Below the pieces are notes generated by a model, which ran no database searches, had not been told where the DNA came from, and worked only from the letters and a program-made list of their open reading frames with translations. From NCBI GenBank assembly GCA_965218795.1, contig OZ244653.1:1664001-1728000 (forward strand): DNA of 64,000 nucleotides, read 5' to 3'. This document shows positions 2,774 to 25,957 of this stretch, in pieces (positions within the stretch are counted from its first letter, which is position 1; every line of letters starts with the position of its first letter). The stretch comes from a bacterium. Its GTDB lineage: Bacteria; UBA8248; JACPRG01; G963555815. A program made the translations under genes and the position numbers.

Positions 2774-3639
2774 CAGTAATACTCCTCCACGATGACGATT
2801 CCCGGAGCTCCATTCCCTCCAGGACTCGAGCTGCTTGACCAGCCAGCCGATCCCCCTCCTCCATAGTTCTTGCCATCGCCTCCCTCGCGACCACCTGACC
2901 CTTCCAGATCTATAAAGCCGGAACCGCCACTCAGCTGGCTTTCTCCGCCGCGACTGCTTTGACCTCTGCCCGATCCGTCCCCGCCTCCAATCTGAACGTC
3001 CCCGCCCACTCCATTACCGCCGACTCCGGCCCTTGCAGTCCCGCCTGTCTGTATACCGCCGCCGCCCCCGGTCGCTGAACAGTGAGAGCCGAAGGAGCTC
3101 GTAAGACCGGTCTGAGCGTCTGATACGTTGCCGCCCGTACCGCCCGCTCCAACTGTCACGACCTCGGTCGATGCGAGGACGGACCCGCCGAACCGTCCCT
3201 CCGCATATCCGCCTCCGCCGCCAGGCGTCCCATTTGAGCCCTTAGAGCCGCCGCCGCCGCCACCGACGAGCCGGATCACGACGTATCCGTCGTTCCCCAT
3301 CCCCGCGGGCTTGGTCCAGGCCCCGCTGGAAGTGAAGGTCCGGATCCTTTTCAGACCGCCCCCGCCGCCGACTCTGGCCTTCGCGCCGGAGCTGTCCTTT
3401 GCGATCAGGCCCCCGGAAGAATCGACGAACAGCCGGCGATGGTCCGCCTCCGGGCTGTCCGGGTCCGACGCCTGCTCCTTGAAGTCCCAGGCGTTCGCTG
3501 AGCCGTCGTTGTTCCGGGCCTTCGTCCCGTCCGCGGCATCGACCTCCGGTCCGATGAACAGCCGGTTGAGTGTGTCGTTCTTGGTGGGGTGTCCGGCGCC
3601 CACCATCTCCTCTGTCGCCTGAATTCTTTGATCCGCCAT
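2773..3639 (-). CDS. Glycine-rich tail fibre-like protein
   Basis: TFTSSGAWTKP..VGGGGGG..GGGGGYAE..VTVGAGG..GAPGIVIVEEY glycine-rich domain; SD GGGGAGG before ATG 3639. Confidence 0.75.
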   Translation of the reverse strand: MADQRIQATEEMVGAGHPTKNDTLNRLFIGPEVDAADGTKARNNDGSANAWDFKEQASDPDSPEADHRRLFVDSSGGLIAKDSSGAKARVGGGGGLKRIRTFTSSGAWTKPAGMGNDGYVVIRLVGGGGGGSKGSNGTPGGGGGYAEGRFGGSVLASTEVVTVGAGGTGGNVSDAQTGLTSSFGSHCSATGGGGGIQTGGTARAGVGGNGVGGDVQIGGGDGSGRGQSSRGGESQLSGGSGFIDLEGSGGREGGDGKNYGGGGSAGWSSSSSPGGNGAPGIVIVEEYY

Positions 3640-3650
3640 GGATTCCTCCC

Positions 3651-4030
3651 CGGCAGGCTTTCGCCTGCACCGCATGGGCCGCCCTTGCGCTTCGCTGGGG
3701 CGGCAAAAACAAGGCGACCCAAAGGGTCGCGAAAGCGATCAACCCGGAGGGTTGCCCGGCCATCCAAGCGAAGGGACACAGGCCCAAGCGCAAGAATGGC
3801 GAGACCGTACCGGCAACCTCCCGCCAGGTCTCCGACCTGGACCGCATGAGCCGCGCCTGAACATCCGAGGCGCGGCAAAGGCAAGGCAGCCTCCGGTTGC
3901 ATCGCATTGGGCGCGCTTCGCGCGGCGAAAAGGCCGGGCCAGTACGGAGCCTGGCCCCTACGAAAAACAGACGTCTTTGCCGCCCAAGCGAAGCGCCAGG
4001 GCGGCCAAAGCGATGCAACGGGACGTTGCC
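3651..4030. repeat. Two-hairpin intergenic repeat locus 2
   Basis: Five core motifs, including GCAGGC-GAAA-GCCTGC, CAACCC-GGA-GGGTTG, CCAGGTC-GGA-GACCTGG and GCAACG-GGA-CGTTGC. Confidence 0.9.
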
Positions 4031-4031
4031 C

Positions 4032-5279
4032 CTATCCCATCAGGGTTTGCAAACGATCGTTCCCCGCCGTTCTGGACCCGTCCGAAATGCAGCTCCCGTC
4101 CGCGATGCAGGAGTCGGTGACATACAACCCGGTGTCCAGCAGCCGGAACCTGACCTCGCTCCGCTCCGAGACGAATTCCTTCGACAGAACGCGGCAGATC
4201 TGGTTGGCCAAGGGCCGCCGGCCGTCTCTTTCAAAAACAAAATCCAAAGAGAGGGAGACGTGATCTCCCCGCTCGACGTGCAGCAGGGTTTCAGTCTTCT
4301 GTTCGATCTCGAAAACCCGGGGGCCGTTCTTGAACAGGCTGACGATGACGTGCTGAACGGTCCGCAGCGTGGTGAGGTCGCGGATCCAGGGCATCTCGAA
4401 CAGGCCGCCGGTCCTGCCGAGGGCGCCGTGGACGCCCACGCTTTTCAGGTCCTGCTCGGCCGCGCCGTCATCGAAACCGAAGAACCCGCGGTCGAAGAAA
4501 TTGTAGCGGTAGCGAGCCCCTGGACGGTTGATGATGTCTTCGCGAAGCCGGGGACCGACCCGGGCCGCGCCCCGCTGGCGGGCCGTGATGAACCCCTGCA
4601 TGGTCTCTCCGAAGGGCAGCGATCCTGCGCCGGACAACCCGCTTTCCATCTGGAGGTAGACCTTCCGGTCCTTTCGCAGGAACCAGCCGCCCATGAAGTC
4701 CTTCATGACCTCCTGGATCAACCCGCCCGGGGTGACGTCTGCCGCCAGGACGCTCGCGGCCCTGTACCCGGCCGCCGCGGCCCGCTCCCTGGCGCTTTCC
4801 AGGGCCGAGGCGTCGAATATCTCCGAGGTTTCCCCCAGGCCCGCGACGTTGGCCAGGAAGTCCTCGACCACGGCGACGGGGTTCTCGATCAGCGACGCGC
4901 CGGCCGCCCGGCCCTTGCCCCGGGCCCGGACCGCCCCGTTGGGTTCCACCGTGAACGAGACCGCGGCGATAGCCCCCCGGCCCTCGAAGTCGCTGGACGC
5001 GCTGAAGGCGTATCCCGCCGGCGGGATCTCGCCGTCCTCGTCATAGAGGGTGACGCTGTTGCCGTCCGCCTCGGACAGCACGGGGTGTCCCGCGAAGGCG
5101 TAGACCCCGCCCTCCGGGGAGGCGTCGATCCGGGGCAGTTCCCATATTCCCCGGTCCCCGTCGGTCAGATCGCCGTAGACGACGGGCAGCGCGGCGTCCT
5201 CGTTTTCCGGGTTGGCGTACCGGCCCGCCCGGGGCAGGAGGAACACATCGTTCAACAGACTCGTATCGATCGCCGTCAC
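4032..5279 (-). CDS. Phage tail tip / baseplate hub-like protein
   Basis: GTG start after a repeat-borne SD; LPVVYGD and LIENP motifs; follows the tape measure gene. Confidence 0.65.
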   Translation of the reverse strand: MTAIDTSLLNDVFLLPRAGRYANPENEDAALPVVYGDLTDGDRGIWELPRIDASPEGGVYAFAGHPVLSEADGNSVTLYDEDGEIPPAGYAFSASSDFEGRGAIAAVSFTVEPNGAVRARGKGRAAGASLIENPVAVVEDFLANVAGLGETSEIFDASALESARERAAAAGYRAASVLAADVTPGGLIQEVMKDFMGGWFLRKDRKVYLQMESGLSGAGSLPFGETMQGFITARQRGAARVGPRLREDIINRPGARYRYNFFDRGFFGFDDGAAEQDLKSVGVHGALGRTGGLFEMPWIRDLTTLRTVQHVIVSLFKNGPRVFEIEQKTETLLHVERGDHVSLSLDFVFERDGRRPLANQICRVLSKEFVSERSEVRFRLLDTGLYVTDSCIADGSCISDGSRTAGNDRLQTLMG

Positions 5280-5280
5280 G

Positions 5281-5900
5281 GCAACCTCCCGTTGCATCGC
5301 ATTGGCCGCGCCTGAACATCCGAGGCGCGGCAAAAGACAAACCGGCACGATGCCAAGCCATCCAAGCGAAGGAACACAGGCCCAAGCGCAAGAATGGCGA
5401 GATCGTACCGGCAACCTCCCGTTGCATCGCATGAGCCGCGCCTGAACATCCGAGGCGCGGCAAAAGACAAACCAACACGATGCCCGGCCATCCAAGCGAA
5501 GGAACACAGGCCCAAGCGCAAGAATGGCGAGATCGTACCGGCAACCTCCCGCCAGGTCTCCGACCTGCACCGCATGGGCCGCGCCTGAACATCCGAGGCG
5601 CGGCAAAAGACAAACCAACACGATGCCCGGCCATCCAAGCGAAGGAACACAGGCCCAAGCGCAAGGATGGCGAGTGCGCACCGGCAACCTCCCGCCAGGT
5701 CTCCGACCTGCACCGCATGGGCCGCGTTGAGGGCTTTGCCCTGACGCGGCAGAGACCTCAAGGCCACGCCTGGCGGTCGTCGAATCGGGGCAACGCCTTG
5801 CCGGCGCGGCAGAGACAAGGGCGACGCGAGCCATAGCGCGAGCGTCGCGAAAGCGGTCCAGGCGAAAGCCTGGCGATGCAACGGGACGTTGCCGGTCCAG
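5281..5900. repeat. Two-hairpin repeat locus 3a: tandem array of 130, 130 and 143 bp units plus a partial unit
   Basis: Units start at 5281, 5411, 5541 and 5684 with GCAACCTCCCG. Confidence 0.95.
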
Positions 5901-6105
5901 CGGGACGCTGGCGGGCCTGTCCCCCGGATGTCGCAGGCGAGGGTCTGACGCATGGATTCGGGCAACGCGGGAACGGCCTGCGCGTGGGTGCGCCCCGGAC
6001 GTCTTAGCGGGGGGCTGGCCGTATGGATTCCCGCTGCAGCCTGTCCCCGAAGGCTTCTATCGGGGACAGAAATGACGAAACGACAGTCACGCAACCCCCC
6101 AACCG

Positions 6106-6159: not shown

Positions 6160-6179
6160 TGTCATGTATCCGGCAGGGG

Positions 6180-6308
6180 CCTGCCGCCCCAAGGGCGGCC
6201 AATTGCGGTCCAGGCGAAAGCCTGGCGCGATCATAGCGCCCGGAACGTTGCCAGCTGGCGGCATCTCGCCGCAGGCGAGCGCCTGACGCGATGCAACGGG
6301 ACGTTGCC
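6180..6308. repeat. Two-hairpin repeat locus 3b overlapping the tape measure 3' end
   Basis: GCGGT-CCAGGCGAAAGCCTGG and GCGAT-GCAACGGGACGTTGCC. Confidence 0.9.
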
Positions 6309-8723
6309 GTAGCGCCGGCGCTGGAGCTTGCGGATCTCCGCCTCGATCTTCCGCGCAAAGCGCTTCATCTCATGCTCGCTCGACAGGACCGACCGGCTCA
6401 TGTCCACGTTCACGTGGATGTGGTTGGTGATCGTGTCGCCCCGGGGAGTCTCCTCCTCCCGCAGGCCGCGGTTCCGGGGCCCCAGCGGCTCCACGCGGAC
6501 CCGCTCGGGCCCGGCCTCGCCCGCGACGAACCCCGTCGCGCGGTTCACGATCCCGTTGAAGCCCCGCGCCGCGAGCAGGAAGGGGATATGCGGCGCGTAT
6601 CGATCGGCGTAGTCGCGGCCTTTGTAAAGCAGGGCATTGTACGTCGCCTGTTGGAAGATCCGGGCCAGACCCTGCGCGTCCTTCTTGCTTTCGCGCGCGA
6701 TATAATCCGCCTGATTCCCCTCGCCCGCGTTGCCCACCGCGTTGTGGATCCGCCGCGCGTGCATTGCGGTCTCGCGTTCGTCGAAGGCGCCGATCGCCCG
6801 GAAGAAGGCGTCCGCCTTGTCGCGGGCCACGTCCTCCAGCCGGTCCGAAAGGAACGTCCCGCGCTTCCCCCCGCCGAGCAACCCGCCCAAAAACCCCGAG
6901 AGCGGGCCGCCCGCGCCGCCGCCAATCAGGCCCCCCAATACCGTCCCCACGCCGGGGATCAGCGATCCCGCGATCCCGCCGCCGATCGCGCCGACCCCGG
7001 AGCCGATGGTCGAGGCCGTCCCGCTCGTCCCCGTCAATCCCGACAGCAGCTGGCCCGCGCCGAACCCCAGACCCGCCCCGCCCGCCAGCTGACCGAAACT
7101 GGAGCCGGTCCCCAGGAATCCCCCCTGGCCGAAGAAGCCCGAGGATGCGGAGACGCCGGTCAGCGACGGCGGAGCGAAGATCGAGACGCCCGCCGCGGCT
7201 CCCGCGCCGCCGCCGAACAGGTTCCCGGTCCCGGGGATCGACGGGAGGCTGAAGCCTCCTCCCCCGCCTGAGCCGACGCCCCCGAACCCCAGGCCGGGGA
7301 TGCCCACCGGCGTGTTGAACAGCGTCGCCAGGCCCGAGGCCGCCCAGGAGGTCACCATCTGCGCCACCACGTCCGCCCAGACGTTCACCATCCGCAGGCC
7401 CATGTTCTCGAACGACGCCCCGATGTTGTCGAGCCTGCCCGTCAGGAAGTCGAAGAACTCTTCCTGCAAGCCGCCCCGGAGCGCCCCGAACGTGGCCGTG
7501 GTGGCCTGGGAGGCGTTCAGGCCGAAGCTGGACATGTCCAGGTAGGCCCGCTGCGCGCCCGCGGAGATCCCCCCGAACAGCGCCTGGGAGCTCACGCCCA
7601 GGTCTTGCAGGGCTGAGCGCTGTTCGGCTGCGGATTGACGGGCGATCTCCGGAATCGCCTCGCCCGCGGACCTTTCGTAGAACCGCTCCAGCGCGCCGTA
7701 GGCGTCCTCGCCGGCCGCTTGCTGTTCCTCGTAGCCGAGCAGGGCCGCGCCGAGGGTTTCTTCGGTCGCGTCGATGAAGGGCGCGGCGAAATCCCGCTGG
7801 TACGCCTCGGAGGAACGCCGGATGAGGTTGCCGACCGAGTCGGTGTAGCCCATCCAGGCCCGCAGGCCGTCTTCCTGCAAGGAAGCTAGGGGTTTCACTG
7901 GCCCCGGAAACGATACCAAAGTTGGAGAATGGGGAAGTCCAAGGCTGGAGATTGGACCATTGTGATCCATCTTCAGGCCATCTGTTGATGGTCCTCCATT
8001 CAACCTACCTCTACCCGACACCGGTACAGGTTCGGACGCTTCAATTTCTTTTTCGAAGCAGAAGCATCTAACAAGCTTATCGAGCGATACATCAATATAT
8101 TCAAGCCGGAGATTTCTCGTTTGATTGGATATTTCTTCCTTTTTCAGAAATTCCAGAATCTGACCGATTTGAACATTTAGCTGTTGATTTTGGCTTTGCT
8201 GCACAAATCCGGTTTTGCCTAGTTTCCTAGTCTCTTGTGCAATGTCAACCCCTTTTTCAGCTATACCAATCATATCTTCAATAGGAGTTCTCGGATCCTT
8301 CTTACTCCTTTTTGGATCCCTTGGAAATTTTGTCTTAAACCGTTTAATCTGGGATAAAAGTTCGATCGTTTTGATGATAGAAGCTATGTTCTTGGAAGAC
8401 CAAAGATTCAACTCAAGGTATTCAATGATGAGTTCGGGAGGAACTATCGTAAAAGGAAAAGAGGGCAGCGCATTATTCGAACGCTTCAATGAGGAAATGG
8501 ATTTCATGATCGATTGATTGACTCTCTCTAATACCCCCTTTATTCCGCTTGCATAAGATTCCATGTTGGAACGCGCACCCTCGGCGAAAGCTTTGTGGGC
8601 CGCCGATGCGTTCCGAAGCGTTTTCTCGATTTCATTGTCGAATTGATGGATCGCGGGTGTCGCGTGGTCGTCCACTTTTAGTAGAAATTCAATGCTATTC
8701 GCCGTTTGGGACTTTCTCCTCAA
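6231..8723 (-). CDS. Tape measure protein
   Basis: 830 aa, helical, with a Gly-rich hydrophobic segment and the ARGFNGIVNRATGFVAGEAGPERV motif near the C-terminus; downstream of the tail chaperones. Confidence 0.8.
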   Translation of the reverse strand: MRRKSQTANSIEFLLKVDDHATPAIHQFDNEIEKTLRNASAAHKAFAEGARSNMESYASGIKGVLERVNQSIMKSISSLKRSNNALPSFPFTIVPPELIIEYLELNLWSSKNIASIIKTIELLSQIKRFKTKFPRDPKRSKKDPRTPIEDMIGIAEKGVDIAQETRKLGKTGFVQQSQNQQLNVQIGQILEFLKKEEISNQTRNLRLEYIDVSLDKLVRCFCFEKEIEASEPVPVSGRGRLNGGPSTDGLKMDHNGPISSLGLPHSPTLVSFPGPVKPLASLQEDGLRAWMGYTDSVGNLIRRSSEAYQRDFAAPFIDATEETLGAALLGYEEQQAAGEDAYGALERFYERSAGEAIPEIARQSAAEQRSALQDLGVSSQALFGGISAGAQRAYLDMSSFGLNASQATTATFGALRGGLQEEFFDFLTGRLDNIGASFENMGLRMVNVWADVVAQMVTSWAASGLATLFNTPVGIPGLGFGGVGSGGGGGFSLPSIPGTGNLFGGGAGAAAGVSIFAPPSLTGVSASSGFFGQGGFLGTGSSFGQLAGGAGLGFGAGQLLSGLTGTSGTASTIGSGVGAIGGGIAGSLIPGVGTVLGGLIGGGAGGPLSGFLGGLLGGGKRGTFLSDRLEDVARDKADAFFRAIGAFDERETAMHARRIHNAVGNAGEGNQADYIARESKKDAQGLARIFQQATYNALLYKGRDYADRYAPHIPFLLAARGFNGIVNRATGFVAGEAGPERVRVEPLGPRNRGLREEETPRGDTITNHIHVNVDMSRSVLSSEHEMKRFARKIEAEIRKLQRRRYGNVPLHRVRRSPAARCRQLATFRAL

Positions 8724-8918: not shown

Positions 8919-9458
8919 TCATTCACATTTCATTATGCCTATACTCTTCGGAACAGTTAATTTTCCGGCCAAATTATTCGGCATTTTACAACCAAACCTT
9001 ATTGATAAGTGAGAATAAAGCAAAGGTGTCCAAATAATAGCCCGATCAGATCGACTCCCTATCGGCATTGTGTAAATTGAAACATAGGTTTTCTTTGCTT
9101 CTTCCGGTACAAAATAAATTGCAATAATTTCTTCAGGACTAACATCAAACCAGTTTCGCAGGTGTTCCGCGAGTATATAACCCTTATTTTCATCTTTCTC
9201 TCGAATGATGAGTCCATACTGGTTCAAGATCCTGATGGAAGATTCGAATAGTTCCTCATTATCAAATTGAAAAAGAACACTTCTCTCTCTCTTGTCCATT
9301 AATTCACTAAGTCCCTCTGGACGGAATGCGTTGAAATAACTTAGAGACTGACTTGATCTAAGTATAGTTCCCAACCATTCGGTATGTAGAAACAGCATCC
9401 ACGACAGGAAAAGCAGAACCCAAGGTATCGCATTGATGGCGGTTCTGTGTTTCGACAT
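8919..9458 (-). CDS. Low-GC membrane-anchored hypothetical protein (moron-like)
   Basis: N-terminal TM followed by a soluble domain; AT-rich DNA. Confidence 0.6.
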   Translation of the reverse strand: MSKHRTAINAIPWVLLFLSWMLFLHTEWLGTILRSSQSLSYFNAFRPEGLSELMDKRERSVLFQFDNEELFESSIRILNQYGLIIREKDENKGYILAEHLRNWFDVSPEEIIAIYFVPEEAKKTYVSIYTMPIGSRSDRAIIWTPLLYSHLSIRFGCKMPNNLAGKLTVPKSIGIMKCE

Positions 9459-9846
9459 CACTCCTTCCCCTCTCAACGGACCTACTCGGGTGCCTGGATT
9501 GTACCGAGCCAGATGGGTTTAGATACCCTTCGGACATTCCCGACATCCGGGTCCGCATCGTTCCCAGCTTCTGGTTTATCGTTCCCAGCTCCTGGTTCAA
9601 TGCCTGAATCGGCCGAAGCGTATCTTCCAGCGCAGCTCTCACGGGCATTAAAGCTCGCCTGAATGAATTCAGAGACTTCAGCAGCAGGGTCTCATTGGCC
9701 TTCAGGCTCGCCTTGGATTCTTCAGCGAACGTCTTGTGCGCCAATGAGACCTTCATGAGCGTCTGATCCACCGTTTTGGCCAATCGACGCAACTCTGGAG
9801 TCACCCTGTCTCGAGCCTCCAGCTCCAGAACTATCGAATTGTCCAT
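9358..9846 (-). CDS. Tape-measure N-terminus-like stub
   Basis: MDNSIVLELEARD...AHKTFAEES resembles tape measure ANSIEFLLKVDD...AHKAFAEG. Confidence 0.55.
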   Translation of the reverse strand: MDNSIVLELEARDRVTPELRRLAKTVDQTLMKVSLAHKTFAEESKASLKANETLLLKSLNSFRRALMPVRAALEDTLRPIQALNQELGTINQKLGTMRTRMSGMSEGYLNPSGSVQSRHPSRSVERGRSDVETQNRHQCDTLGSAFPVVDAVSTYRMVGNYT

Positions 9847-9847
9847 C

Positions 9848-12708: not shown

Positions 12709-12955
12709 GGCTACCTCCCATTGCATCGCATGAGCGGCCCTGCGGGCCGAGAAAAGCCGGGCCGGTACGGAGCCCGGCCCCTACGAAAAAGCAACGTCCC
12801 GTTGCATCGCATTAGGCACTCGCCTGCGGCGAGATGCCGCCAGCGTCCCGCTGGACCGCTTTCGTTACGCCCGCGCTATTTGCTCACGTTGTCTTTGTCT
12901 TTGCCGCCCAAGGGAACCGCAAGGGCGGCGAATGCGGTCCAGGTCGGAGACCTGG
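12709..12955. repeat. Two-hairpin intergenic repeat locus 4
   Basis: Starts immediately after TAG (CCAGGTCTCCGACCTGG) and ends GCAATGGGAGGTAGCCA-ATG. Confidence 0.9.
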
Positions 12956-13465
12956 CTAGATTTCGAGGCATTCGAGGATCAGGGGCTCGCGGGTCAGCTC
13001 GTACTCGACGACCCGGTAATCCCCCAGGTCCAGGCGGTCGTTCCAATCCGTCGCGCCCGGCTGGATCAGGGTCAGACGCACCTGCCCGCTGAGGATGTTC
13101 TCCTCGGCCTCGATGGCCGAGCAGGCCAGGTCGTCGTTGGAGACGACCACGGAGACCTCCGCCGGCTCCGACTGGGCGAACCCTTCCTCCAGCGAGGCGT
13201 CCGGGCTGCCTTCCGCCAGCGAGCCGATCTCGATCACCCGCCCGCCCCGGTCCAGGATGCCGCCCAGGCCGCTTCCGGCCTTGATGGCGCCGTCGCCCTT
13301 CCATGCGCCGTCGGCCAGGTGCTCGTCACCCGCGGCGTCCGCCAGTCCGGGGGGATAGTGCGTGGACCACACCCGTACGCCGAACGCGTTGGAGAAGAAG
13401 ACGATCGGGATGGAGCGCTCGCCCCGCTTCATGGCGTTGTCGAAATTGAGGCTGGTTGGGAGCAA
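12956..13465 (-). CDS. Phage tail protein (tail tip component)
   Basis: TTG start with GGAGG SD; 169 aa, beta-rich; shares an ADG..DG..AG motif with ORF 4032-5279. Confidence 0.55.
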   Translation of the reverse strand: MLPTSLNFDNAMKRGERSIPIVFFSNAFGVRVWSTHYPPGLADAAGDEHLADGAWKGDGAIKAGSGLGGILDRGGRVIEIGSLAEGSPDASLEEGFAQSEPAEVSVVVSNDDLACSAIEAEENILSGQVRLTLIQPGATDWNDRLDLGDYRVVEYELTREPLILECLEI

Positions 13466-13485: not shown

Positions 13486-14154
13486 GCCAGGTCTTCGACC
13501 TGGCAACCTCCGGTTGCATCGCGTTAGGCACTCGCCTGCGGCGAGATGCCGCCGGCCGGCAATGTGCTGGTTTCTCTTTCGCCGCGCCTCGAATTCTCAG
13601 GCGCGGCCAATACGGTCCAGGTCCGAGACCTGGCAACCTCCGGTTGCATCGCGTTAGGCACTCGCCTGCGGCGAGATGCCGCCGGCCGGCAATGTGCTGG
13701 TTTCTCTTTCGCCGCGCCTCGAATTCTCAGGCGCGGCCAATACGGTCCAGGTCCGAGACCTGGCAACCTCCGGTTGCATCGCGTTAGGCACTCGCCTGCG
13801 GCGAGATGCCGCCGGCCGGCAATGTGCTGGTTTCTCTTTCGCCGCGCCTCGAATTCTCAGGCGCGGCCAATACGGTCCAGGTCCGAGACCTGGCAACCTC
13901 CGGTTGCATCGCGTTAGGCACTCGCCTGCGGCGAGATGCCGCCGGCCGGCAATGTGCCGGTTTCTCTTTCGCCGCGCCTCGAATTCTCAGGCGCGGCCAA
14001 TACGGTCCAGGTCCGAGACCTGGCAACCTCCGGTTGCATCGCGTTAGGCACTCGCCTGCGGCGAGATGCCGCCGGCCGGCAATGTGCCGGTTTCTCTTTC
14101 GCCGCGCCTCGAATTCTCAGGCGCGGCCAATGCGGTCCAGGTCCGAGACCTGGC
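13486..14154. repeat. Two-hairpin repeat locus 5: five near-identical 130-bp tandem units
   Basis: Units at 13501, 13631, 13761, 13891 and 14021; only 1-2 substitutions between copies. Confidence 0.97.
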
Positions 14155-15676: not shown

Positions 15677-16181
15677 GGCAACCTCCGGCCAGGCTTTCGC
15701 CTGGACCGCATGGGCCGCGCCTGAACATCCGAGACGCGGCAAAGACAGGATGCCGTGTGAATCGCAGCGGCGGGGCGGCGTGCCGCCAGGTCTCCGACCT
15801 GGACCGCATTAGGCACTCGCCTACGGCGAGATGCCGTTGGCCGGCAACGTGCCGGGGGATTTCCGACCCTTGGGTCGCATGGAGAGACGGGGCTTGAGTC
15901 GGTGACTCTTCAGCCTGTGGCTGACCTGACCCTCCACAAAAAAAGCGCGTCCGATTGGACGCGCCACCAAGTCATCGACCTGGACCGGCCACCTCCCGTT
16001 GCATCGCGTTGGCCGCGTTGAGGGCTCACGCCCTGACGCGGCAACGTCCCGTTGCATCGCATTGGCCGCGTTGAGGGCTCCGCCCTGACGCGGCGAAAGC
16101 GCACCGGCGCGTCGCCGGTCGCTTGCGCGACAAGAACAAAGCGACCCAAAGGGTCGCGAAAGTGATCAACCCGGAGGGTTG
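15677..16181. repeat. Two-hairpin intergenic repeat locus 6
   Basis: About six core motifs; begins right after the TGA of the tail tube gene and ends CCGGAGGTTGCCTC-ATG. Confidence 0.9.
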
Positions 16182-17225
16182 TCACGCCAGCTCGCCCGTC
16201 GCGTGCCGATTCGTGACGGCGATCCGGAACGGTTTCGTGATGCCCGTCATGCCGGAGGGAGCGGTCTGCGCCTCCTCGCAGCGGCCCGAGACCGAATGTC
16301 CGATCTTGCCGGGGCCGGAAACCGCCGCGTCGCCCCCCGTCAGGATGAGCTGGGGCAGGGAGACGGTCGCCGTGTAGTTGTTGCCGCTCCCCGCGTCCAC
16401 ACCCGAGTCGAACGTCAGGTCGGCCTTGAGGGCGGTGTGGTTGACGACGCGGTCGATCTGCGCGGCGTCGGTGTACTCCGGCAGGGCGAACTCGAACGTG
16501 ACGGTGGGCATGCCGTCCTCGGTCGGTTCGACGATCCCTTGCCGGCCGGCCACGTGATCCGCGGAATGCGGGCGCGTCACGGAGAGCGTGAAGCTTGTGA
16601 TCTGCAAATCGTCCGCGGGGCTGGCGAGCGCGGACCCGCTCTGGGCGTTCAGCCGGAAGGTCAAGTGCCGCGAGAGGACGCGCAGCGCCTTGGAGCGGTA
16701 GGTGACGCCGGCGATGGTCGTGTTGTTGTTGGCGCCCGAGGCGGTGTTCCGGTTCAGGGCGTCGCACCGGGTCGTGACCTCGAAGGTGACCGGCTGACCC
16801 GCCTCGCCGCTGATCGAGAACCCGATGACCTTGGCGCCCGGGAACTCCCAGACCTCGGGGCCCTTGTCGATGGCGACCGTGCCGAAGAGGCCGTCGAGCG
16901 AATCGATGAAATCCAGCGTGTGGGTATAGGCCGTGGCCGCGGCGATCTGCCGGGCCGAGGCCGAGCCCATCCCAAGGGCGATCAACCGCCAGAGGGCGGA
17001 ATCGTACCGGAGAAAGCCGGAAAGGGTTCCCTCGATGTTGACGTCGCCCGCCTCGGAGGTCTGCTGAAAACCGACCCCCGCCTCCTCCGCGATCAGGTCC
17101 TCCGGCGCGCCCGCGCCCAGGCCCTCGCCCGTGAGAAGGAGCCCGTCGGCCGCTCCCGCCGCGACAGGCGTTCCCCAGACGACTCCCTTTTTCAGTCCAA
17201 CGATGACTTCGCGCCCTGTGCTCAC
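16182..17225 (-). CDS. Major tail tube protein
   Basis: 347 aa, beta-rich, WGTPV, AYTHT, WEFPGAKVIGFSISG; follows the tail completion genes. Confidence 0.75.
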   Translation of the reverse strand: MSTGREVIVGLKKGVVWGTPVAAGAADGLLLTGEGLGAGAPEDLIAEEAGVGFQQTSEAGDVNIEGTLSGFLRYDSALWRLIALGMGSASARQIAAATAYTHTLDFIDSLDGLFGTVAIDKGPEVWEFPGAKVIGFSISGEAGQPVTFEVTTRCDALNRNTASGANNNTTIAGVTYRSKALRVLSRHLTFRLNAQSGSALASPADDLQITSFTLSVTRPHSADHVAGRQGIVEPTEDGMPTVTFEFALPEYTDAAQIDRVVNHTALKADLTFDSGVDAGSGNNYTATVSLPQLILTGGDAAVSGPGKIGHSVSGRCEEAQTAPSGMTGITKPFRIAVTNRHATGELA

Positions 17226-17611: not shown

Positions 17612-17737
17612 GGGGCAACGTGCCCCTGCGATCTCGCCATCCTTGTGCTTCGCTTGGATGGCCCGGCATCGTGCCGGTTTGTTTTGCCGCGCCTCGGATT
17701 CTCAGGTGCGGCGAATGCGGTCCAGGCGAAAGCCTGG
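17612..17737. repeat. Two-hairpin intergenic repeat locus 7
   Basis: TGA followed directly by CCAGGCTTTCGCCTGGACCGCATT. Confidence 0.85.
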
Positions 17738-19589: not shown

Positions 19590-19763
19590 AGGCAACGCGC
19601 CTCCGCGTCCTCGCCAGGTCTCCGACCTGGACCGCATTGGCAACCTCCGGTTGCATCGCGTTAGGCACTCGCCTGCGGCGAGATGCCACCAGCCGACAAC
19701 GTGCCGGGGCGATATGGCCGCGTCTGACAATCCGAGGCGCGGCAAAATCGCCATAGCGCGTCG
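19590..19763. repeat. Two-hairpin intergenic repeat locus 8
   Basis: CCAGGTCTCCGACCTGGACCGCATT and GCAACCTCCGGTTGCATCGCGTTAGGCACTCGCCTGCGGCGAG. Confidence 0.9.
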
Positions 19764-20045: not shown

Positions 20046-20047
20046 AA

Positions 20048-20205
20048 GGCAACCTCCCGTTGCATCGCATTGGGCACTCGCCTGCGGCGAGATGCCATGT
20101 GAATCGTAGCGGCGGGTCACCGTCCCCGCCCGCCCCACAAAAAAGCCGGAGTATCTTGCCCCTGCCGCCCAACGGAACCGTCAGGGCGGCGAAATGCCCG
20201 TGGCG
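20048..20205. repeat. Two-hairpin intergenic repeat locus 9
   Basis: GCAACCTCCCGTTGCATCGCATTGGGCACTCGCCTGCGGCGAGATGCC; the first ~80 bp are nearly identical to locus 1. Confidence 0.9.
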
Positions 20206-20213
20206 GCTCACCA

Positions 20214-22307
20214 CTACGCGACGACGGATTTGTACATGCCGCGGTGGTCCAGAACGTCGCCGCCGTAGACGTGCCGGATCTTGTACGTGATGACGTCGGA
20301 GTCGAAGACGCTGCCGACGCTGGGCGCATCCTGAACGAACAACTCGGGATCTTCCCGCCCCTCGAAGAAGCCGATCTCGACGGTCGGGCAGAGGGCCGGG
20401 TCGCAGACGACCGTCCAGTCGCCCGCGTCCGTCCAGTAATCGACGACGATGACTTCCATGCTTTGATACAGGTTCGGCGTCGTCGCGTTCTCGCCTGTGT
20501 TGACGTACGCGGAGGAGGTCGCCAGCCGCCAGGCCAGGTGCTCGAGCTCGTTGGGGACGAGAAGAAACCTGGGCACGATGCCCAGGATTTCGGTCGCCGC
20601 CCCGAAGGCCGCCTGAGAGCGCATGGCCGTGCGGGCCGCGTCCAGTTCCGCGCTGGACAGCGCGCTCGACCCCAGATTGTTGTGGTTGGCGTGGAACAGC
20701 GCCGTGCTGTCGTAATCCAGGGTGGGGTTGTCCTCGATGAAATCAAAGGCGAACCGGTACAGCGTAATGGCGGCGGCCCGGCCCAGCCGCATCGGGATCC
20801 GGCGAATCGCCCCCACGTCGTCATTGGCGATCATCTCGATGGTGAGGTCGTCGGTTCCGCCGCGCTTGGTGGCCGCGTAGGTGACCTCCTCATCGCCCGG
20901 GGAGGTGAGGGCCTGGTACGTCCCGCGCTCCGCGACCGCCGGCAGTACGCCGTAGCCGCCCATCCGCATCCTGCGCTGGGTCCGGAAGTCCGACACCGAC
21001 GTGATATCGCTGACGATCTTTCGCCAGTCGGTCAGCCCGGGGAGGTTGTATTCCGCAATCATCCGGCGGGTGATGGAATCCCCCAGGATCTCCGCCCAGC
21101 CGGAGGTCGACAGCGATTCCCGTATCTTCCGCAGGGCCGCCTCCCTGAGACGGGGGCTGGAGCCGGTTCGCTCGCTCATGTGGTGGGGGTAGGTTTCCTG
21201 GAGGATCTGATAGGCATCGCCCCAGTCGCCCGTCACCTTGCGGTAGGCTTCACGGAAGGACCGGAACCGCGACACCCCGTCGATGTCCCGGCCCGCAAAG
21301 AATCCGTCCAGGGCGGAGCCGAGCTTGTCGCGCGGGTCGTCGCCCGCCTCGATGCCCAACCCGAGCCCCCGGACGTGGCCGCTCTGTTCCACGGCGGCCC
21401 AGACCTTGCGGTCCTCGGCGATTCGAGCGACGAGTTCCGGGGTCTCGAATACCCGGGAATCGAAATCGCGCCGGATGGCCGACTGGACGGGCTGGGGAAG
21501 TCCGCTCGCAGGGAGGCGGCTCTCCAGAACCGCCTGGCACCCGGCCAGACGGGCCTCATGAACGCGGGCTTCCGGGGAAGAACCTGGATCCCCCTGGGGC
21601 GAAGCATCGGCCCGGTCTTCCTCCGGCCATTTGACCGCGATCGCCTGCTCGATCTCTCCAAGCAGATGTTCTTCCGTCGCCTCCTCGGAAACGGAACGGT
21701 TCGGGTCCACCTTTTCAAGCAAAGCCAGCAATCTTTCCTTCATCGTCTCCTCCTCCTGATTCACCGCGGCCGGCCGGTCCGCCGCCACCAGCCGCAAGAC
21801 TGCGCCTCCCGCGGCCGGGTCGGTCACCATGTCCACGGAAAACACCTTGACAATCTCCTTCACCTCGATGACCTCACCTTCCGCCGTTCGGCGGGGCTCA
21901 CACTGCGCCAGGGCGTCGATGGAAAAGCCCACGATGTCGCGCTTGCCCCGCTCCCACGCGTCTATCAGGAGCTCGCGAAGGCGTCCCGCGGCCGGGGAAA
22001 GCTTGAACAGGGCGCGGATACCCCCGCCCTCGAACCTGGGGGCCTCGAACCACCCCACGATGTCCTCGACGCTTCGTTCGGGGCGCTCCTGTATCTCCAT
22101 TCGGGTCGCGTGGTCGGCGAAGGCCTTGACGCCCTCGAAGAGGGGGGCGGCACGGCGCAGGGCATCCTCGGGGTAGAGGTTTCCGTTGGCTGAAAGACCC
22201 GATTCGATGAGGACGACCTCCCACTCGAGACCCTCGCGCCCCTTGACCCGTTCCAGGAGCCTGGCCGTTTCCCGTATCCGTCTGCGGGGCGGGGCCGGTT
22301 GCTTCAT
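20214..22307 (-). CDS. Prohead protease - major capsid protein fusion (Mu gpT-like capsid)
   Basis: N-terminal GLSANGNLY..FADH..GFSI..SVDMVTDPAAGG protease; C-terminal capsid with DFRTQ, IANDD, PRFLLVP, YKIRHVYG. Confidence 0.85.
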   Translation of the reverse strand: MKQPAPPRRRIRETARLLERVKGREGLEWEVVLIESGLSANGNLYPEDALRRAAPLFEGVKAFADHATRMEIQERPERSVEDIVGWFEAPRFEGGGIRALFKLSPAAGRLRELLIDAWERGKRDIVGFSIDALAQCEPRRTAEGEVIEVKEIVKVFSVDMVTDPAAGGAVLRLVAADRPAAVNQEEETMKERLLALLEKVDPNRSVSEEATEEHLLGEIEQAIAVKWPEEDRADASPQGDPGSSPEARVHEARLAGCQAVLESRLPASGLPQPVQSAIRRDFDSRVFETPELVARIAEDRKVWAAVEQSGHVRGLGLGIEAGDDPRDKLGSALDGFFAGRDIDGVSRFRSFREAYRKVTGDWGDAYQILQETYPHHMSERTGSSPRLREAALRKIRESLSTSGWAEILGDSITRRMIAEYNLPGLTDWRKIVSDITSVSDFRTQRRMRMGGYGVLPAVAERGTYQALTSPGDEEVTYAATKRGGTDDLTIEMIANDDVGAIRRIPMRLGRAAAITLYRFAFDFIEDNPTLDYDSTALFHANHNNLGSSALSSAELDAARTAMRSQAAFGAATEILGIVPRFLLVPNELEHLAWRLATSSAYVNTGENATTPNLYQSMEVIVVDYWTDAGDWTVVCDPALCPTVEIGFFEGREDPELFVQDAPSVGSVFDSDVITYKIRHVYGGDVLDHRGMYKSVVA

Positions 22308-22735: not shown

Positions 22736-22762
22736 TGCGGTCTCCTTTCGGCCTCCGGACAC

Positions 22763-22796
22763 AAAAAGACCCCGCCGGGTTTTCGCCCGACGGGGT
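22763..22796 (-). terminator. Intrinsic terminator inside the virion operon
   Basis: CCCCGTCGGG-CGAAAA-CCCGGCGGGG followed by TCTTTTTG. Confidence 0.65.
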
Positions 22797-22864
22797 TGTG
22801 AATTCCATCTAATTGATTTTCTTAGGGACCGTCTGATTTCACAAAATGATGCAAAGGTGTAGTT

Positions 22865-23854: not shown

Positions 23855-23863
23855 TCATTCACA

Positions 23864-24073
23864 CTAAAGCGCTGTTCCATTGGATAAAGAGAGCTTTGGT
23901 TCTACCCTGGTCATCGCTGTCAATTTAGCTGCCTCGCGGTTCTCAGCCTGACACATTTCGACCAATTCCATCACTTCGGCCACACCGGGCTCTTGAAGGG
24001 CTTTCTTGAGCAGTTTTTGCTGCTCCTTTTGAAGCTCCTCCGCCTGTCTCCTTTTTGAGGCTTTCTTTTCCAT
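23864..24073 (-). CDS. Small protein coupled to the SDH protease
   Basis: 69 aa, PGVAEVMELVE; GGAGG upstream. Confidence 0.55.
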   Translation of the reverse strand: MEKKASKRRQAEELQKEQQKLLKKALQEPGVAEVMELVEMCQAENREAAKLTAMTRVEPKLSLSNGTAL

Positions 24074-24218
24074 TGACGCACCCTCCGCACTGGATGTGCA
24101 AGACAGTCAATCAATACTTGCCTTTCGAGAGCATATTAGCTACTCGTCAGCTAACCTGCAACTTGCTTGCCAGAACATTTTACGGCTCAGACACGTTTAA
24201 GGCTATTTCATTCCTGTT

Positions 24219-25568
24219 TCACAGCCCGATCTCCCCCAGCAGCAGGGTCGCGCCTTGGGCGGCGGTCTCGCGGTCGATGTAGCCCATCTCTTCGGCCTTG
24301 GCGAGGGCGTGGACCCCTCGATCGAGGGATTCAGTGGCGCGGTTCAGATCCCGGCCGGCCGGCTCGGGGAGGGTGACGGAGAAGTCGTGCAGGACACGGT
24401 TGACCCGATCCGGGTCGCTTGCCGTCAGCTCCGGCGAGACCGAGGCCCGCATCTCCGGATTGAACGTCCACCATTGGTCCAGGACGAACCGGAAGACCCT
24501 CTCGATCATGTGCGCGACGAAACGCTGGCGGGACTTGATCCGCTTGATGATGGGATCCGCCATCTCCGCCGCCGTGGCGCGGTTCACGTCCTCGCCGCGG
24601 CCGAAGAAGTGCTCGGCGAACCCCGCGCCTCCGATGATGTGGCCGCGGAACTCCCGGGCCGCCCGGCTGTTGTCCTGATGGTCCAGGTTCGGCGTGACGG
24701 CCTGTAGATTCTCGTGGCGGTTGTGGGCGTAAACGGCGCCCGGCCTGAGATCCTTGAGCATGGCCGCCTTCTCGCGCAGCTTTTTGGCGTCCGCTCCATC
24801 CACCGTGAGATCGAAGATGAACCGCTTGGCCAGAACCGTCCGCTCCATGTCGTCGAAGAGGAACTGGTCGTAGGCGTCCAGAAAGTCGGCCAGGGCCATC
24901 AGATCGGGCGTCCCGCGCGCGGCGGTGCTCGTCTTGTTGACGGCGAAGTAAAAGCAATCGCCCACGAGCCGCCCAAACGAGGGGCTGACGGGCTTTTCAT
25001 CCGGCAGGATAACCGCCAGGGTTCTGGCTTCCATCCGCTCGCGGCCCTTTCGGACGACGGCCGCCGTGATGCGGGCGTTTCCGGGGTCCGTCTTCACCTG
25101 GGCGATCTTCTCCGCGTCCAGGACGCCCAGGCGCACATGCCCGTCCGCCCGGTTCACGAAGACGGGCAGGCAGAGCTCTCCGAAAAGCCCCAGGTCGCGG
25201 ACAAGGGCGTGCTGGTGGATGTCCCATGCGTTCACCCAATCGTTCCAGTGATTGTCGAGGACACGTTGCAGGAGGGGTTGAGCATGGGCGTACGTGATCC
25301 CCTTGCCGATCACCCAGTCTTTCAGGTCCTCCGTGAGACGGAAGGCCAAGGGGTTGGTCTTGTAGAGGATATAGGCCGTTCGAATGGCGCGGTCCTGCCG
25401 GTCGGGCGAGAGGTCGCGGTCGCCGCTTCCCGTCAACGAGCGAAAGAGATGATCATCCGCGTCCACGCCCTCTCCCAGGGGAAGCGCCTCGTTGACCCTC
25501 CGAAGAATTCCGGGACGGGTCAAAGCCCAGTTCACACTCTTCCGCTTCCAGCGATCGATCAAACTCAT
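24219..25568 (-). CDS. Phage portal protein
   Basis: LYKTNPLAFRL, LFGELCLPV, RGTPDL, NRATAAEM; follows terL. Confidence 0.8.
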   Translation of the reverse strand: MSLIDRWKRKSVNWALTRPGILRRVNEALPLGEGVDADDHLFRSLTGSGDRDLSPDRQDRAIRTAYILYKTNPLAFRLTEDLKDWVIGKGITYAHAQPLLQRVLDNHWNDWVNAWDIHQHALVRDLGLFGELCLPVFVNRADGHVRLGVLDAEKIAQVKTDPGNARITAAVVRKGRERMEARTLAVILPDEKPVSPSFGRLVGDCFYFAVNKTSTAARGTPDLMALADFLDAYDQFLFDDMERTVLAKRFIFDLTVDGADAKKLREKAAMLKDLRPGAVYAHNRHENLQAVTPNLDHQDNSRAAREFRGHIIGGAGFAEHFFGRGEDVNRATAAEMADPIIKRIKSRQRFVAHMIERVFRFVLDQWWTFNPEMRASVSPELTASDPDRVNRVLHDFSVTLPEPAGRDLNRATESLDRGVHALAKAEEMGYIDRETAAQGATLLLGEIGL

Positions 25569-25825
25569 TTCGATTCCTCTGTCGGCGCTGTGGCCGCCGT
25601 TTGGATGGTTCGGGCGCAGGCCCAGGTCGAAGGAACATCCCTCACCGGGTCGGCGAGACAAGCCCCCCACCGCATCAGCCTTCGCCTCACGGCTCGGCTT
25701 CTGCGACTCCCCCTCAAGGGGGGAGTGATTGGATCGGGGATTGGACAGTCGAAGATGCCCGGCCCATGCCCCGCCCGTGCACGCGCCTTGCATGGTGTCG
25801 TCGGCCCACAACCTGCCTGTCACCC

Positions 25826-25957
25826 CGGCAGGCTTTCGCCTGCACCGCATGAGCCACCCTGGCGCTTGGGACTGTGTCCCTTCGCTTGGATGGCTCGGCC
25901 TTTCGCGACGCCAGCGTCAGCGCCAGCGTCGCCAATGCGATGCAACGGGACGTTGCC
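25826..25957. repeat. Two-hairpin repeat locus 10 overlapping the terL 3' end
   Basis: GCAGGCTTTCGCCTGCACCGCAT ... AATGCGATGCAACGGGACGTTGCC. Confidence 0.9.

Follow-up and report, generated by a model that had tools for sequence, protein, structure and literature searches.

Lineage-private mosaic palindromes at the gene junctions of a prophage head-tail operon, probably co-opted in part as translation-initiation regions

Why are the late genes of a prophage separated by hairpin-rich repeats that carry Shine-Dalgarno (SD) sequences, and do these repeats form a translation switch? The question is raised by a 26-kb minus-strand head-tail cluster in the window (the whole stretch of DNA analysed, 64 000 nucleotides). 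The first-pass annotation had proposed that SDs sequestered in identical GGA-loop hairpins are controlled together by one factor or, alternatively, that the element targets stop/RBS junctions. The head-tail operon hosting the repeats is part of a defective prophage, and eleven arrays (∼3.15 kb) make up roughly 12 % of the cluster. They are listed below; G000 is this genome, G002 and its counterpart G003 (the sister cluster) are related clusters.

Array 11, 25823..25965, minus strand: TerL 3′ end; reversed B hairpin, linker, long hairpin, linker and GAAA-loop hairpin; the TerL frame runs 15 codons into the repeat and stops at 25917 (C terminus compared with G002 and G003).
Array 10, 20046..20193, minus strand: capsid gene to g19764; 3′ end of D hairpin, AATGCGAT linker and B hairpin; GGAGG at 20057-20053, 7 nt upstream of ATG 20045 (start confirmed by the G002 homologue).
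Array 9, 19611..19747, minus strand: 3′ of g19764; C, D, B and A hairpins; the downstream gene g18792 (GTG 19523) has its own SD.
Array 8, 17612..17737, minus strand: 0 nt from the g17738 stop; reversed A hairpin, linker, reversed C hairpin.
Array 7, 15677..16181, minus strand: tube gene to g14154, 0 nt from TGA 16182; 3′ end of C hairpin, linker, A hairpin and half-B; GGAGG at 15686-15682, 7 nt upstream of ATG 15674 (start confirmed by the G002 homologue).
Array 6, 13487..14158, minus strand: 0 nt from TAG 14154; five tandem 130-nt units, each of reversed A, linker, reversed C, E, D, linker and B; the downstream gene g12956 (TTG 13465) has a non-repeat SD.
Array 5, 12709..12960, minus strand: g12956 to g12354, 0 nt from TAG 12956; decayed B copy at the 3′ end; GGAGG at 12718-12714, 6 nt upstream of ATG 12707 (start supported by the G002 homologue).
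Array 4, 6190..6310, minus strand: tape-measure gene 3′ end; reversed B, reversed D; the final 25 tape-measure codons and stop (6231-6308) are repeat.
Array 3, 5278..5914, minus strand: 5′ of g4032; begins with reversed B and A, followed by three to four forward units repeating every 130–143 nt; 3′ end of C hairpin, linker and B hairpin; GGAGG at 5289-5285, 5 nt upstream of GTG 5279 (start supported by the G002 homologue).
Array 2, 3648..4030, minus strand: g4032 to the tail fibre gene, 1–2 nt from TAG 4032; 3′ end of C-like hairpin, linker, GAAA-loop hairpin and half-B-like tail; GGAGG at 3649-3645, 5 nt upstream of ATG 3639 (start confirmed by G002 and G003).
Array 1, 1680..1953, minus strand: cluster end; the final phage ORF stops inside (tail 1903-1950), as does a truncated ClC gene on the opposite, plus strand (1686-1712).

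A single mosaic family builds all eleven arrays, each of which extends from the upstream stop codon to the downstream start codon. The half-element consists of an inner hairpin (24–30 nt), a linker (A/C)ATGCG(A/G)T (ATGCGRT) and an outer hairpin (15–17 nt) with a GGA or GAAA loop. One reversed and one forward half-element form the full unit, so that an array opens with a reversed hairpin after the stop and closes with a forward hairpin before the start. The forward outer hairpin B has the sequence GCAAC(C/G)GGAGGTTGCC, with a perfect GGAGG at the outer end; GGAGGTTGCC with at most one mismatch was found 32 times, compared with 6.8 ± 2.6 times in 100 shuffles, none of which reached 32. Module order differs between arrays, both orientations are present, and units are repeated in tandem with periods of 130 and 143 nt. 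No promoter-like sites were matched inside the arrays, and comparison of the repeats with Rfam gave no matches at E values up to 0.1. A terminator-like hairpin lies within array 7 (15965-15944) and a host-type REP between array 9 and g18792 (19552-19572).

That the arrays are collapsed or chimeric repeats produced by assembly is extremely improbable. Short-read contigs of four runs do break at most arrays, but arrays 7 and/or 8 are bridged, at most with a few differences, by contigs from runs of three studies (X1, 14102-18229, which may be the source sample; X5, 16065-19121; X7, 16065-19522). Moreover, the array grammar is consistent, the flanking genes are intact, and a related family is present in the independent assembly G003.

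The repeat family is private to this cluster and lineage. Its signature, linker plus perfect hairpin, occurs 27 times in 24.5 kb of the cluster and, in the other 5.15 Mb of the genome, 123 times by a loose or three times by a strict definition (one to three signature copies outside the cluster). Modules A–J lie almost entirely within the cluster, as do 19 of the 20 matches to the linker-plus-B pattern in this genome; the same pattern had no match in 60 other genomes, and the family was found in none of 59 relatives. A search of 596 Gb of genomes returned seven single matches, which by a rough estimate is the level of chance, and the viral contigs searched gave none.

Sister cluster G003 has a diverged version of the repeat with compensatory stem changes, including an orthologous array at the same junction as array 8, 3′ of g17738. 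When the C hairpins of G000 and G003 were compared, and thus across two genera, 97 % of 72 cells paired and four of nine pairs had changed on both sides; the covariation score was reached by none of 500 shuffles, and the 9-nt loop is conserved. These data bear on the suggestion that a phage repressor binds the 15–17 bp palindromes as double-stranded operators dispersed through the late operon, much as in mycobacteriophage L5 with its stoperators or in phiC31 with its conserved inverted repeats. In favour of operators, the palindromes are perfect, confined to the phage cluster and number about one per kilobase. However, the several stems are unrelated (GCAAC, CCAGGTC, CCAGGC, CAACCC) and have only the loop and flanking linker in common, no repressor gene was found in the cluster, and the compensating C-stem pairs with their retained loop indicate a folded single strand rather than a half-site for a protein dimer. 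Operators are therefore a quite improbable explanation.

Five starts have a repeat-borne SD, as had been noticed at first reading: GGAGG stands 5–7 nt upstream of 20045, 15674, 12707, 5279 and 3639. The contexts are GCAACGGGAGGTTGCC followed by GTG (5279), and ..GGGAGGTTGCCTT (20045), ..CCGGAGGTTGCCTC (15674), GCAATGGGAGGTAGCCA (12707) and ..GCCTGCCGGGGAGGAATCC (3639), each followed by ATG. The 16S rRNA of this genome ends in ..GGATCACCTCCTTTCT at its 3′ end, with the anti-SD CCUCC. Homology confirms that these starts are the true ones; the N termini of the G002 proteins align from exactly the five repeat-preceded codons, and 3639, the start of the fibre gene, is also confirmed by G003. Inner hairpin, linker, outer hairpin and SD form the common leader of all five.

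The further claim that hairpin B contains or directly precedes these SDs held in part. The SDs of 5279 and 20045 lie in a complete B hairpin; for 15674 and 3639 the SD belongs to a half copy located 3′ of another hairpin, and for 12707 to a decayed copy. In both intact cases GGAG is placed inside the 5-nt loop of a weak 5-bp stem, not in the stem. Of 20 sense-oriented half-elements, only four adjoin a start (five of 21 if the decayed copy is counted), ∼16 of 20 lying elsewhere. At least four late genes of the same operon (portal, g18792, g17222 and g12956) have independent SDs, and the outer-hairpin loops differ in G003. Control of sequestered SDs in identical GGA-loop hairpins by one factor was thus not borne out.

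At the upstream side, repeats abut stops as first described (TAG|CCAGG at 12956 and 14154, TGA|CCAGG at 17738, TGA|CAACCC at 16182), and a fifth case, TAG|GG|GCAACG, was found at 4032, so that arrays begin 0–2 nt 3′ of five stops. The four repeat-encoded tails described earlier are likewise present, in TerL (..YRQRPVASHWRRWR and stop), the tape measure (..GNVPLHRVRR.. and stop), the last gene (..RQPPVASPGLRPGPH and stop) and the ClC remnant (..WQPPVASR and stop); together they use two of the three reading frames. For TerL and the tape measure, the two ORFs assessed by homologue comparison, homology to G003 ceases 1–3 codons short of the native stop of the relative and the repeat follows. Both have lost their own stop codons to an array.

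G002, in which the same genes in the same local order are found without arrays, supplies the empty sites. Its gaps at five comparable junctions measure −28 to 8 nt, against 348, 240, 63, 64 and 688 nt in the window. The proposal of a targeted element therefore stands only in its description: the arrays fill the stop-to-start gaps and replace two stops, but an insert that spares the genes must abut both codons when ancestral gaps are this small, and no targeting is required.

Taken together, we consider it likely (probability about 0.6) that lineage-private mosaic palindromes, REP/BIME- or MITE-like, colonised the junctions of a once compact head-tail operon and were partly co-opted as translation-initiation regions. 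Given the ancestral gap size, inserts had to land within a few bases of a stop, sometimes in the last codons, from which the repeat-encoded tails on TerL and the tape measure follow. Insertion would have displaced the native SD, sited in the end of the upstream gene, beyond reach of the downstream start. The GGAGG of the forward hairpin B, by its position and spacing, would then serve ribosomes as the SD of five late genes, and inserts without a GGAGG end would persist only where a native SD remained, as for the portal gene, g18792, g17222 and g12956. In the late mRNA the hairpins probably have generic effects only, as barriers to 3′ exonucleases and breakers of translational coupling. Spread would have been local, and recombination between arrays is likely because of the mosaic module order, the tandem units and the changed gene order. 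The repeat looks like a tolerated selfish element rather than a purpose-built translation switch, and the arrays may have some effect on translation.

A selected role is the doubtful but possible alternative: the arrays would be RNA punctuation cassettes of the late mRNA, in which the stop-proximal hairpin protects or tunes the upstream cistron, the start-proximal hairpin presents or masks the SD, and several genes are set together by one factor of phage or host, or by pairing of reversed B (CCUCC) with forward B (GGAGG). It would account for arrays that start 0–2 nt past five stops and end 5–7 nt ahead of five starts with the same two-hairpin leader at each, and for covarying stems, a conserved C loop and an orthologous array across two genera. 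The 130-nt unit folds better than 200 of 200 shuffles (z=−3.6), and arrays 1 and 3 are predicted to fold with their 5′ reversed B paired to the 3′ SD-bearing B. Such end-to-end complementarity is limited to two or three arrays, however, and for the five leader pieces the gain in folding over shuffles is only modest (z from −0.8 to −3.0). Because one transcript contains both orientations, recognition of a specific RNA sequence would suit only some of the copies. The 16 of 20 sense copies away from starts, the GGAG in the loop of both intact hairpins and the different outer loops of G003 also count against cassettes, and G002 works, or worked, without any arrays.

Rearrangement offers another, improbable reading, in which the repeats are mainly recombination linkers at gene boundaries that let tail-region modules swap or reorder. 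In G002 and G003 the tape-measure gene is followed by the homologues of g14154, g12956 and g4032; in the window g14154 and g12956 stand between the tube gene and the chaperones, and arrays occupy all three novel joints. Shuffled module order, small strain indels within arrays (3988, 12881, 13485-13488 and 15866) and two low-GC foreign blocks in the cluster point the same way. Nevertheless, a single rearrangement is no proof of selection, any dispersed repeat can recombine, and neither block has arrays on both flanks. The proposed boundary sequences in lambdoid genomes and T4-type promoter/stem-loop cassettes are short repeats at phage gene boundaries that are linked with module reshuffling. 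The arrays would resemble these in being repeated short sequences at such boundaries, but are multi-hairpin mosaics without promoter-like sites rather than single conserved motifs or promoter cassettes.

Among known repeats, REP/BIME elements of Enterobacteria and Pseudomonas, with their RAYT transposases, resemble the arrays in consisting of short imperfect palindromes that are rich in GC, flanked by a conserved motif and covarying in their stems; both form mosaic clusters in alternating orientations with short linkers, some in tandem, within operons near stops. REPs stabilise upstream mRNA, and E. coli REPs at most about 15 nt from a stop lower expression of the upstream gene. Unlike REP/BIME, the present repeats are not genome-wide, with 27 copies in one 26-kb cluster versus one to three elsewhere, a restriction that also sets them apart from classical MITEs; their flank is ATGCGRT, not GTAG or CGTC, and the outer hairpin bears a functional-looking SD. 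The cluster was found to contain no gene for a transposase, a nuclease or any other mobilising function, and the two Y1 transposase genes of the genome are flanked by other hairpins.

The SAS/ESAS motifs of Cluster K mycobacteriophages (Pope et al. 2011, PMC3203893) are also phage-private repeats with an SD core that are absent from the host, lie 3–7 nt before several starts (a spacing shared by the arrays) and are sometimes preceded by inverted repeats. SAS, however, is an asymmetric 13-bp motif that almost always adjoins a start, in a single orientation, and is restricted to non-structural genes; the authors saw no support for RNA hairpins. Here, unlike in SAS, the SD forms the end of a mosaic palindromic element with covarying stems that lies among structural genes, occurs in both orientations and has most copies away from starts. 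Correia MITEs of Neisseria, and the promoter-, RBS- and ATG-bearing repeats Neisseria REP2 and Borrelia IR, are small non-coding elements with inverted ends (PMC3184786) that are co-transcribed with adjacent genes, can donate expression signals and alter ORF 3′ ends, as the arrays do. Unlike those MITEs, the arrays are nested and repeated in tandem rather than inserted singly; a target-site duplication could not be defined for them, and no parent IS was identified. One MITE survey gives MITEs in only 0.01 % of viral sequences (PMC11602168), which makes eleven arrays in one phage operon unusual.

The orthologous array in G003, together with covarying stems and a conserved loop, means long retention, which is at least as compatible with a selected function as with a selfish repeat. 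The 29 strain differences displayed in eight genes (13 synonymous, 16 not) hint at relaxed constraint, so selection for a substitute SD may be only historical. A parallel case in favour of the REP/BIME- or MITE-like reading is found in G003, where a different palindromic family ends directly before two start codons.

The genome that holds the window (G000) consists of one contig of 5.17 Mb, in which the window was found at 1664001-1728000. A phage-type head-tail gene cluster occupies 1.7-27.6 kb of the window on the minus strand. Its genes are listed below; names such as g18792 are taken from coordinates, and G002 is a relative with a related cluster.

Genes of the head-tail cluster
25917..27599, minus strand, large terminase (TerL)
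stop at 24219, true start near 25568, minus strand, portal
within the low-GC block at 22300-24200, minus strand, ClpP/SDH-type protease (phrog_11747), without counterpart in G002
20214..22307, minus strand, protease-capsid fusion
minus strand, neck proteins
16182..17225, minus strand, tail tube
minus strand, distal tail proteins
6231..8723, minus strand, tape-measure-like gene
2773..3639, minus strand, tail fibre

Integrase, replication and lysis genes were not found among the neighbouring genes examined, so the cluster is a defective prophage or has been domesticated; it may belong to a widespread prophage family or be a domesticated (gene-transfer-agent-like) cluster. Elsewhere in the class, 21 of 23 genomes from another genus contain capsid homologues (~40% identity), as a single copy in all but one. 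Strain differences in eight genes, among the best-supported 40 of 352 differences, were synonymous in 13 of 29 cases and non-synonymous in 16, from which the cluster may be under relaxed constraint. Two blocks of low GC content (45-54% versus ~66%) lie in the cluster, at 22300-24200 and at 8000-12000; the latter contains small ORFs, including a weak match to a tape-measure N terminus (9358..9846). A ClC chloride-channel gene remnant (978-1712, plus strand), comprising the end of the channel domain and one CBS domain, ends within the terminal repeat array, so that a host gene is truncated by the cluster border. Genes of mobile or defence type form a group of their own at 44187-56553 and encode an S24 peptidase/HTH repressor, an M78 peptidase/HTH pair, a large DNA methylase and a ResIII helicase.

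Self-comparison of the window revealed eleven repeat arrays, all between genes or at gene ends, with a total length of ~3.15 kb (~12% of the cluster).

Repeat arrays, numbered by rising coordinate
1680-1953, array 1
3648-4030, array 2
5278-5914, array 3, two blocks
6190-6310, array 4
12709-12960, array 5
13487-14158, array 6
15677-16181, array 7, three blocks
17612-17737, array 8
19611-19747, array 9
20046-20193, array 10, two blocks
25823-25965, array 11, two blocks

The arrays are built from a few hairpin modules, and the recurring piece is a half-element of three parts: an inner hairpin (C, GCCGCGCCT-9 nt-AGGCGCGGC; D, GGCATCTCGCC-GCA-GGCGAGTGCC; or a further type), a linker, (A/C)ATGCG(A/G)T, and an outer hairpin, either B, GCAAC(C/G)-GGA-(G/C)GTTGC, or A, CCAGGTC-GGA-GACCTGG or CCAGGC-GAAA-GCCTGG. 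Scanning for the linker followed by a perfect hairpin gave 27 half-elements in the cluster (20 in mRNA sense, 7 reversed), a count that leaves out 4 reversed copies with degenerate linkers in the tandem array. A full unit consists of a reversed and then a forward half-element, and arrays therefore open with a reversed hairpin and close with a forward one. The clearest is a 130-nt unit repeated five times at 13487-14158, whose ends are a reversed and a forward linker-plus-hairpin with differing stems (A versus B); complementary B ends occur in arrays 1 and 3. The motif GGAGGTTGCC, with at most one mismatch, occurred 32 times versus 6.8 ± 2.6 in shuffled sequence.

On the sequences searched, the repeat family is private to the cluster. 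The linker-plus-B pattern matched 20 times in G000, 19 times within the cluster and once at ~803188-803189, and was absent from 60 other genomes (from the family, the class and beyond). The strict half-element signature occurred 27 times in 24.5 kb of cluster and 3 times in the other 5.15 Mb, one of these three being a true copy (803188). Nearly all instances of modules A to J in G000 were inside the cluster, and BLAST searches with the array sequences placed 22 of 386 matches outside it, chiefly in a 100-nt mini-array at 803120-803223. This sole multi-module copy outside the cluster (~1430-1535 of locus L016) consists of an A-like hairpin, an H hairpin, the linker and a B hairpin, and adjoins a metallo-beta-lactamase-fold gene. 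A 596-Gb genome collection yielded 7 single matches, by rough estimate the chance level, and a viral contig collection yielded none; in locus L044, which carries the nearest metagenome relative of the capsid gene (69% identity), the repeats are missing next to that gene. A match to the C-loop pattern with one mismatch in another genome (G025) was discarded, being apparently coding sequence in a locus matched by no cluster protein.

The arrays resemble REP/BIME elements in that they are extragenic, short imperfect palindromes in alternating orientation with linker motifs. REP/BIME elements are spread genome-wide in tens to hundreds of copies, whereas the present family is almost confined to the cluster, and RAYT palindromes carry a GTAG/CGTC head where ATGCGRT is found here. 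A link to RAYT was rejected, as the two PF01797 (Y1 transposase) matches in G000 are flanked by GTAGGTCGGGTTAGCG-type or other hairpins. Assignment to a host REP family was also rejected, since hardly any modules occur outside the cluster and the host's own REPs differ, being CCCTCTCC..GGAGAGGG hairpins (18 copies in the genome) and RAYT-type GTAGGTCGGGTTAGCG. Single host-REP copies also occur in the cluster (18214-18234, 19552-19572 and 11767-11798), with very high depth in metagenome contigs; the RAYT-type copy (GTAGGTCGGGTTAGCG...) is of the same kind as the hairpins that flank the Y1 transposase gene at 795231-795593 of G000.

MITEs are non-coding units of 50-500 nt between terminal inverted repeats, with target-site duplications and a related autonomous IS that encodes a transposase. 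The 130-nt unit has oppositely oriented linker-plus-hairpin ends with different stems, and in arrays 1 and 3 the B ends are complementary. Target-site duplications were not evident at five junctions compared with G002, and neither a transposase nor another mobilising enzyme was found in the cluster; a gene-bearing parent element was discarded, with no ORF-bearing copy and no nuclease in the cluster. In integrons, every cassette ORF is followed by an attC site, an imperfect palindrome (R''/L''...L'/R'), and an IntI integrase gene is close by; Pfam scans of the neighbouring ORFs gave no integrase domain, save a weak rve fragment at 36477-36911. Intrinsic terminators are GC-rich hairpins with a U tract behind them in the transcript, and the main modules are not of this kind: the A, C and D hairpins lack a T run on either strand, and 12810-12791 is the sole exception among B hairpins. 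Terminator-like structures are formed by a few other hairpins in the arrays, at 15965-15944 (after the tube gene), 16157-16141, 3730-3714 and 12780-12759. Promoter cassettes were rejected: all 7 promoter-like matches fall at 8.9-11.5 kb, within a low-GC block, and the arrays contain none. Rfam 15 gave no match at E values up to 0.1 for window positions 1-30000 on both strands.

Repeats that donate ribosome-binding sites are known from Neisseria (REP2) and Borrelia (PMC3184786). Cluster K mycobacteriophages carry SAS/ESAS sequences, which are described (PMC3203893) as a 13-bp asymmetric motif, GGGATAGGAGCCC, nearly always 3-7 nt before a start, in one orientation and at non-structural genes. 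SAS is the closest phage precedent for a private SD-containing repeat, though its motif is of a different kind: here another motif is present, a start adjoins 4 of 20 sense copies, 7 further copies are reversed, and the genes are structural. In a survey (PMC11602168), MITEs are reported in 0.01% of viral sequences.

The first-pass annotation had placed SDs inside the repeats, and this was borne out: the repeat carries GGAGG at a distance of 5-7 nt upstream of starts 20045, 15674, 12707, 5279 and 3639, and the 3' end of the 16S rRNA is CCUCCUUUCU. The starts as called are the true ones; in the homologues from G002, a genome of the same family with 58-62% capsid identity, the N termini line up with these very codons, and the fibre start is also confirmed by G003, a relative from a different genus of that family with 78% capsid identity. 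Inverted copies at stops were likewise confirmed, with reversed hairpins that follow directly (0 nt) on stops 12956, 14154, 17738 and 16182, and 1-2 nt past that at 4032. Repeat-encoded tails are present as noted earlier in TerL (QRPVASH), the tape measure (GNVPLHR), and the last gene and the ClC remnant (both QPPVAS). Comparison with homologues covered TerL and the tape measure, two of the four tailed ORFs, and both have lost their native stops: homology to G003 ends 1-3 codons before the G003 stop, and the repeat starts there. The four tails represent two different reading frames of one hairpin, which fits accidental read-through.

Repeat-free homologues were examined for empty sites. G002 carries the same genes with compact junctions, and the B and C patterns have no copy in this genome.

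Junctions between homologous genes in G002 and in the window
TerL / portal: overlap of 28 nt in G002, 348 nt in the window
g19764 / g18792: 8 nt apart in G002, 240 nt in the window
g18792 / g18243: overlap of 1 nt in G002, 63 nt in the window
g18243 / g17738: overlap of 4 nt in G002, 64 nt in the window
g14154 / g12956: 7-8 nt apart in G002, 688 nt in the window

The gap 3' of the capsid gene in 27 related loci was mostly 2-124 nt, a rough measure, the junction being often non-compact. No shared chromosomal site emerged, as the sequences on either side of the G002 cluster match other places in G000. With ancestral gaps of a few bases or less than zero, an insert that spared the genes had to abut both stop and start. 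The adjacency of the element to stop/RBS junctions thus stands, and its targeting to them does not follow: adjacency is to be expected from such small gaps and is evidence of neither targeting nor function.

In a compact operon, the SD of each gene would lie in the last codons of the preceding gene, and an insert would part SD from start. Forward B ends in GGAGGTTGCC, and an array that ends in B, or in a half copy after A, would restore the spacing; at five genes the array end places an SD at the right distance. Where arrays end further upstream, an SD outside the repeat is present, as at the portal, g18792, g17222 and g12956. Inserts that landed a few bases early would replace the stop and give repeat tails. 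The best reading of these sequence comparisons is a phage-private, REP/BIME- or MITE-like mosaic repeat that would have been partly co-opted to supply ribosome-binding sites and stops.

Coordinated translational control by sequestration of SDs in identical hairpins, as had been suggested, was mostly not supported. A complete B hairpin is present only at the starts 5279 and 20045, where a 5-bp stem with GGGAG in the loop is predicted; the SDs of 15674 and 3639 follow an A hairpin on its 3' side, and the stem at 12707 is decayed. Folds of the initiation regions with a 60-nt leader varied with context, and folds of the leader pieces were relied on instead; these pieces folded only modestly better than shuffled sequence (z -0.8 to -3.0). 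Sense-oriented half-elements lie away from any start in 16 of 20 cases and at a start in 4, and the outer-loop sequences of the G003 repeats differ from those of the window. For arrays 1 and 3, the predictions include a long-range pairing between reversed B, with its CCUCC, and the forward B that bears the SD. Such pairing could, speculatively, couple translation to the upstream gene; complementary ends are present in only 2-3 arrays.

G003 has a diverged version of the repeat family, in which all 4 matches to the C pattern are on the phage contig (C336); after the g17738 homologue, a hairpin, the linker and a C hairpin follow in the same order as in the window. The query for the tube protein gave no match in G003. 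Across G000 and G003 (9 C hairpins, 8 of them distinct), the bases pair in 97% of 72 cells, both sides have changed in 4 of 9 pairs, the covariation score was reached by none of 500 shuffles, and 6 of 9 loop positions are invariant. In a small sample of related sequences, this covariation indicates that the hairpin is kept and does not speak to function. The mismatches in mRNA sense (one G-U, two A-C) have no strand preference, so an RNA hairpin and a DNA hairpin are indistinguishable. That the arrays are double-stranded operator sites is unlikely, given that unrelated stems share loop and flank and that stems change by compensating pairs. An assembly artefact is also unlikely: runs from three studies yielded contigs that cross arrays 7 and/or 8, and G003 was assembled independently. 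Contig joints such as 19738->20186 and 1859->5273 were not taken as evidence of polymorphism, being indistinguishable from repeat-mapping effects.

G003 contains a second, unrelated palindromic family of GTTGCGG/GTTACGG-like heptamers, which ends directly upstream of the fibre start and of one other start; its sites are at 200-290 of L092 (contig C73), at 500-620 of L090 (contig C336) and at the 3' end of L007. This family probably breaks the G003 assembly.

Phage genomes are tightly packed, and small repeats of the MITE or REP type are rare in them. Here ~12% of a structural operon is repeat DNA not shared with the host genome, and the operon's reading frames are intact nonetheless, since the repeat end would supply a ribosome-binding site and the repeat body stop codons. 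The operon would thus be a clean natural example of an intergenic parasite tolerated under translational coupling, and would show that expression signals can spread by repeat. A wider reading, unlikely as a whole, is that the phage lineage has its own BIME-like system of self-propagating two-hairpin half-elements that insert at cistron boundaries. Each insert would bring all that such a boundary requires, namely a hairpin near the stop, stops in frame and an SD that faces outward. It would convert a translationally coupled late operon into cassettes that are each initiated and stabilised on their own and can be moved by recombination. A putative phage enzyme or RNA-binding protein, encoded in an early region lost from this defective copy, would recognise the conserved loop and linker. 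A dedicated factor that binds the hairpins would make this a new phage-specific regulatory or mobile system.

A role of the arrays in recombination, as a by-product, is suggested by gene order. In G002 (L026/L027) and G003 (L037) the tape measure is followed by the homologues of g14154, g12956 and g4032, whereas in the window (4032-16182) the tube gene and the chaperones have g14154 and g12956 between them. The tail gene order has thus changed relative to both relatives, and all three new joints carry arrays. The arrays mark breakpoints of tail-gene rearrangement, which bears on the shuffling of phage modules.

In three cases (19637, 3675 and 25850) the linker ATG shares the reading frame of the downstream gene. 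The first lies 6 nt past the GGAGG of a B hairpin and would extend g18792 by 38 residues.
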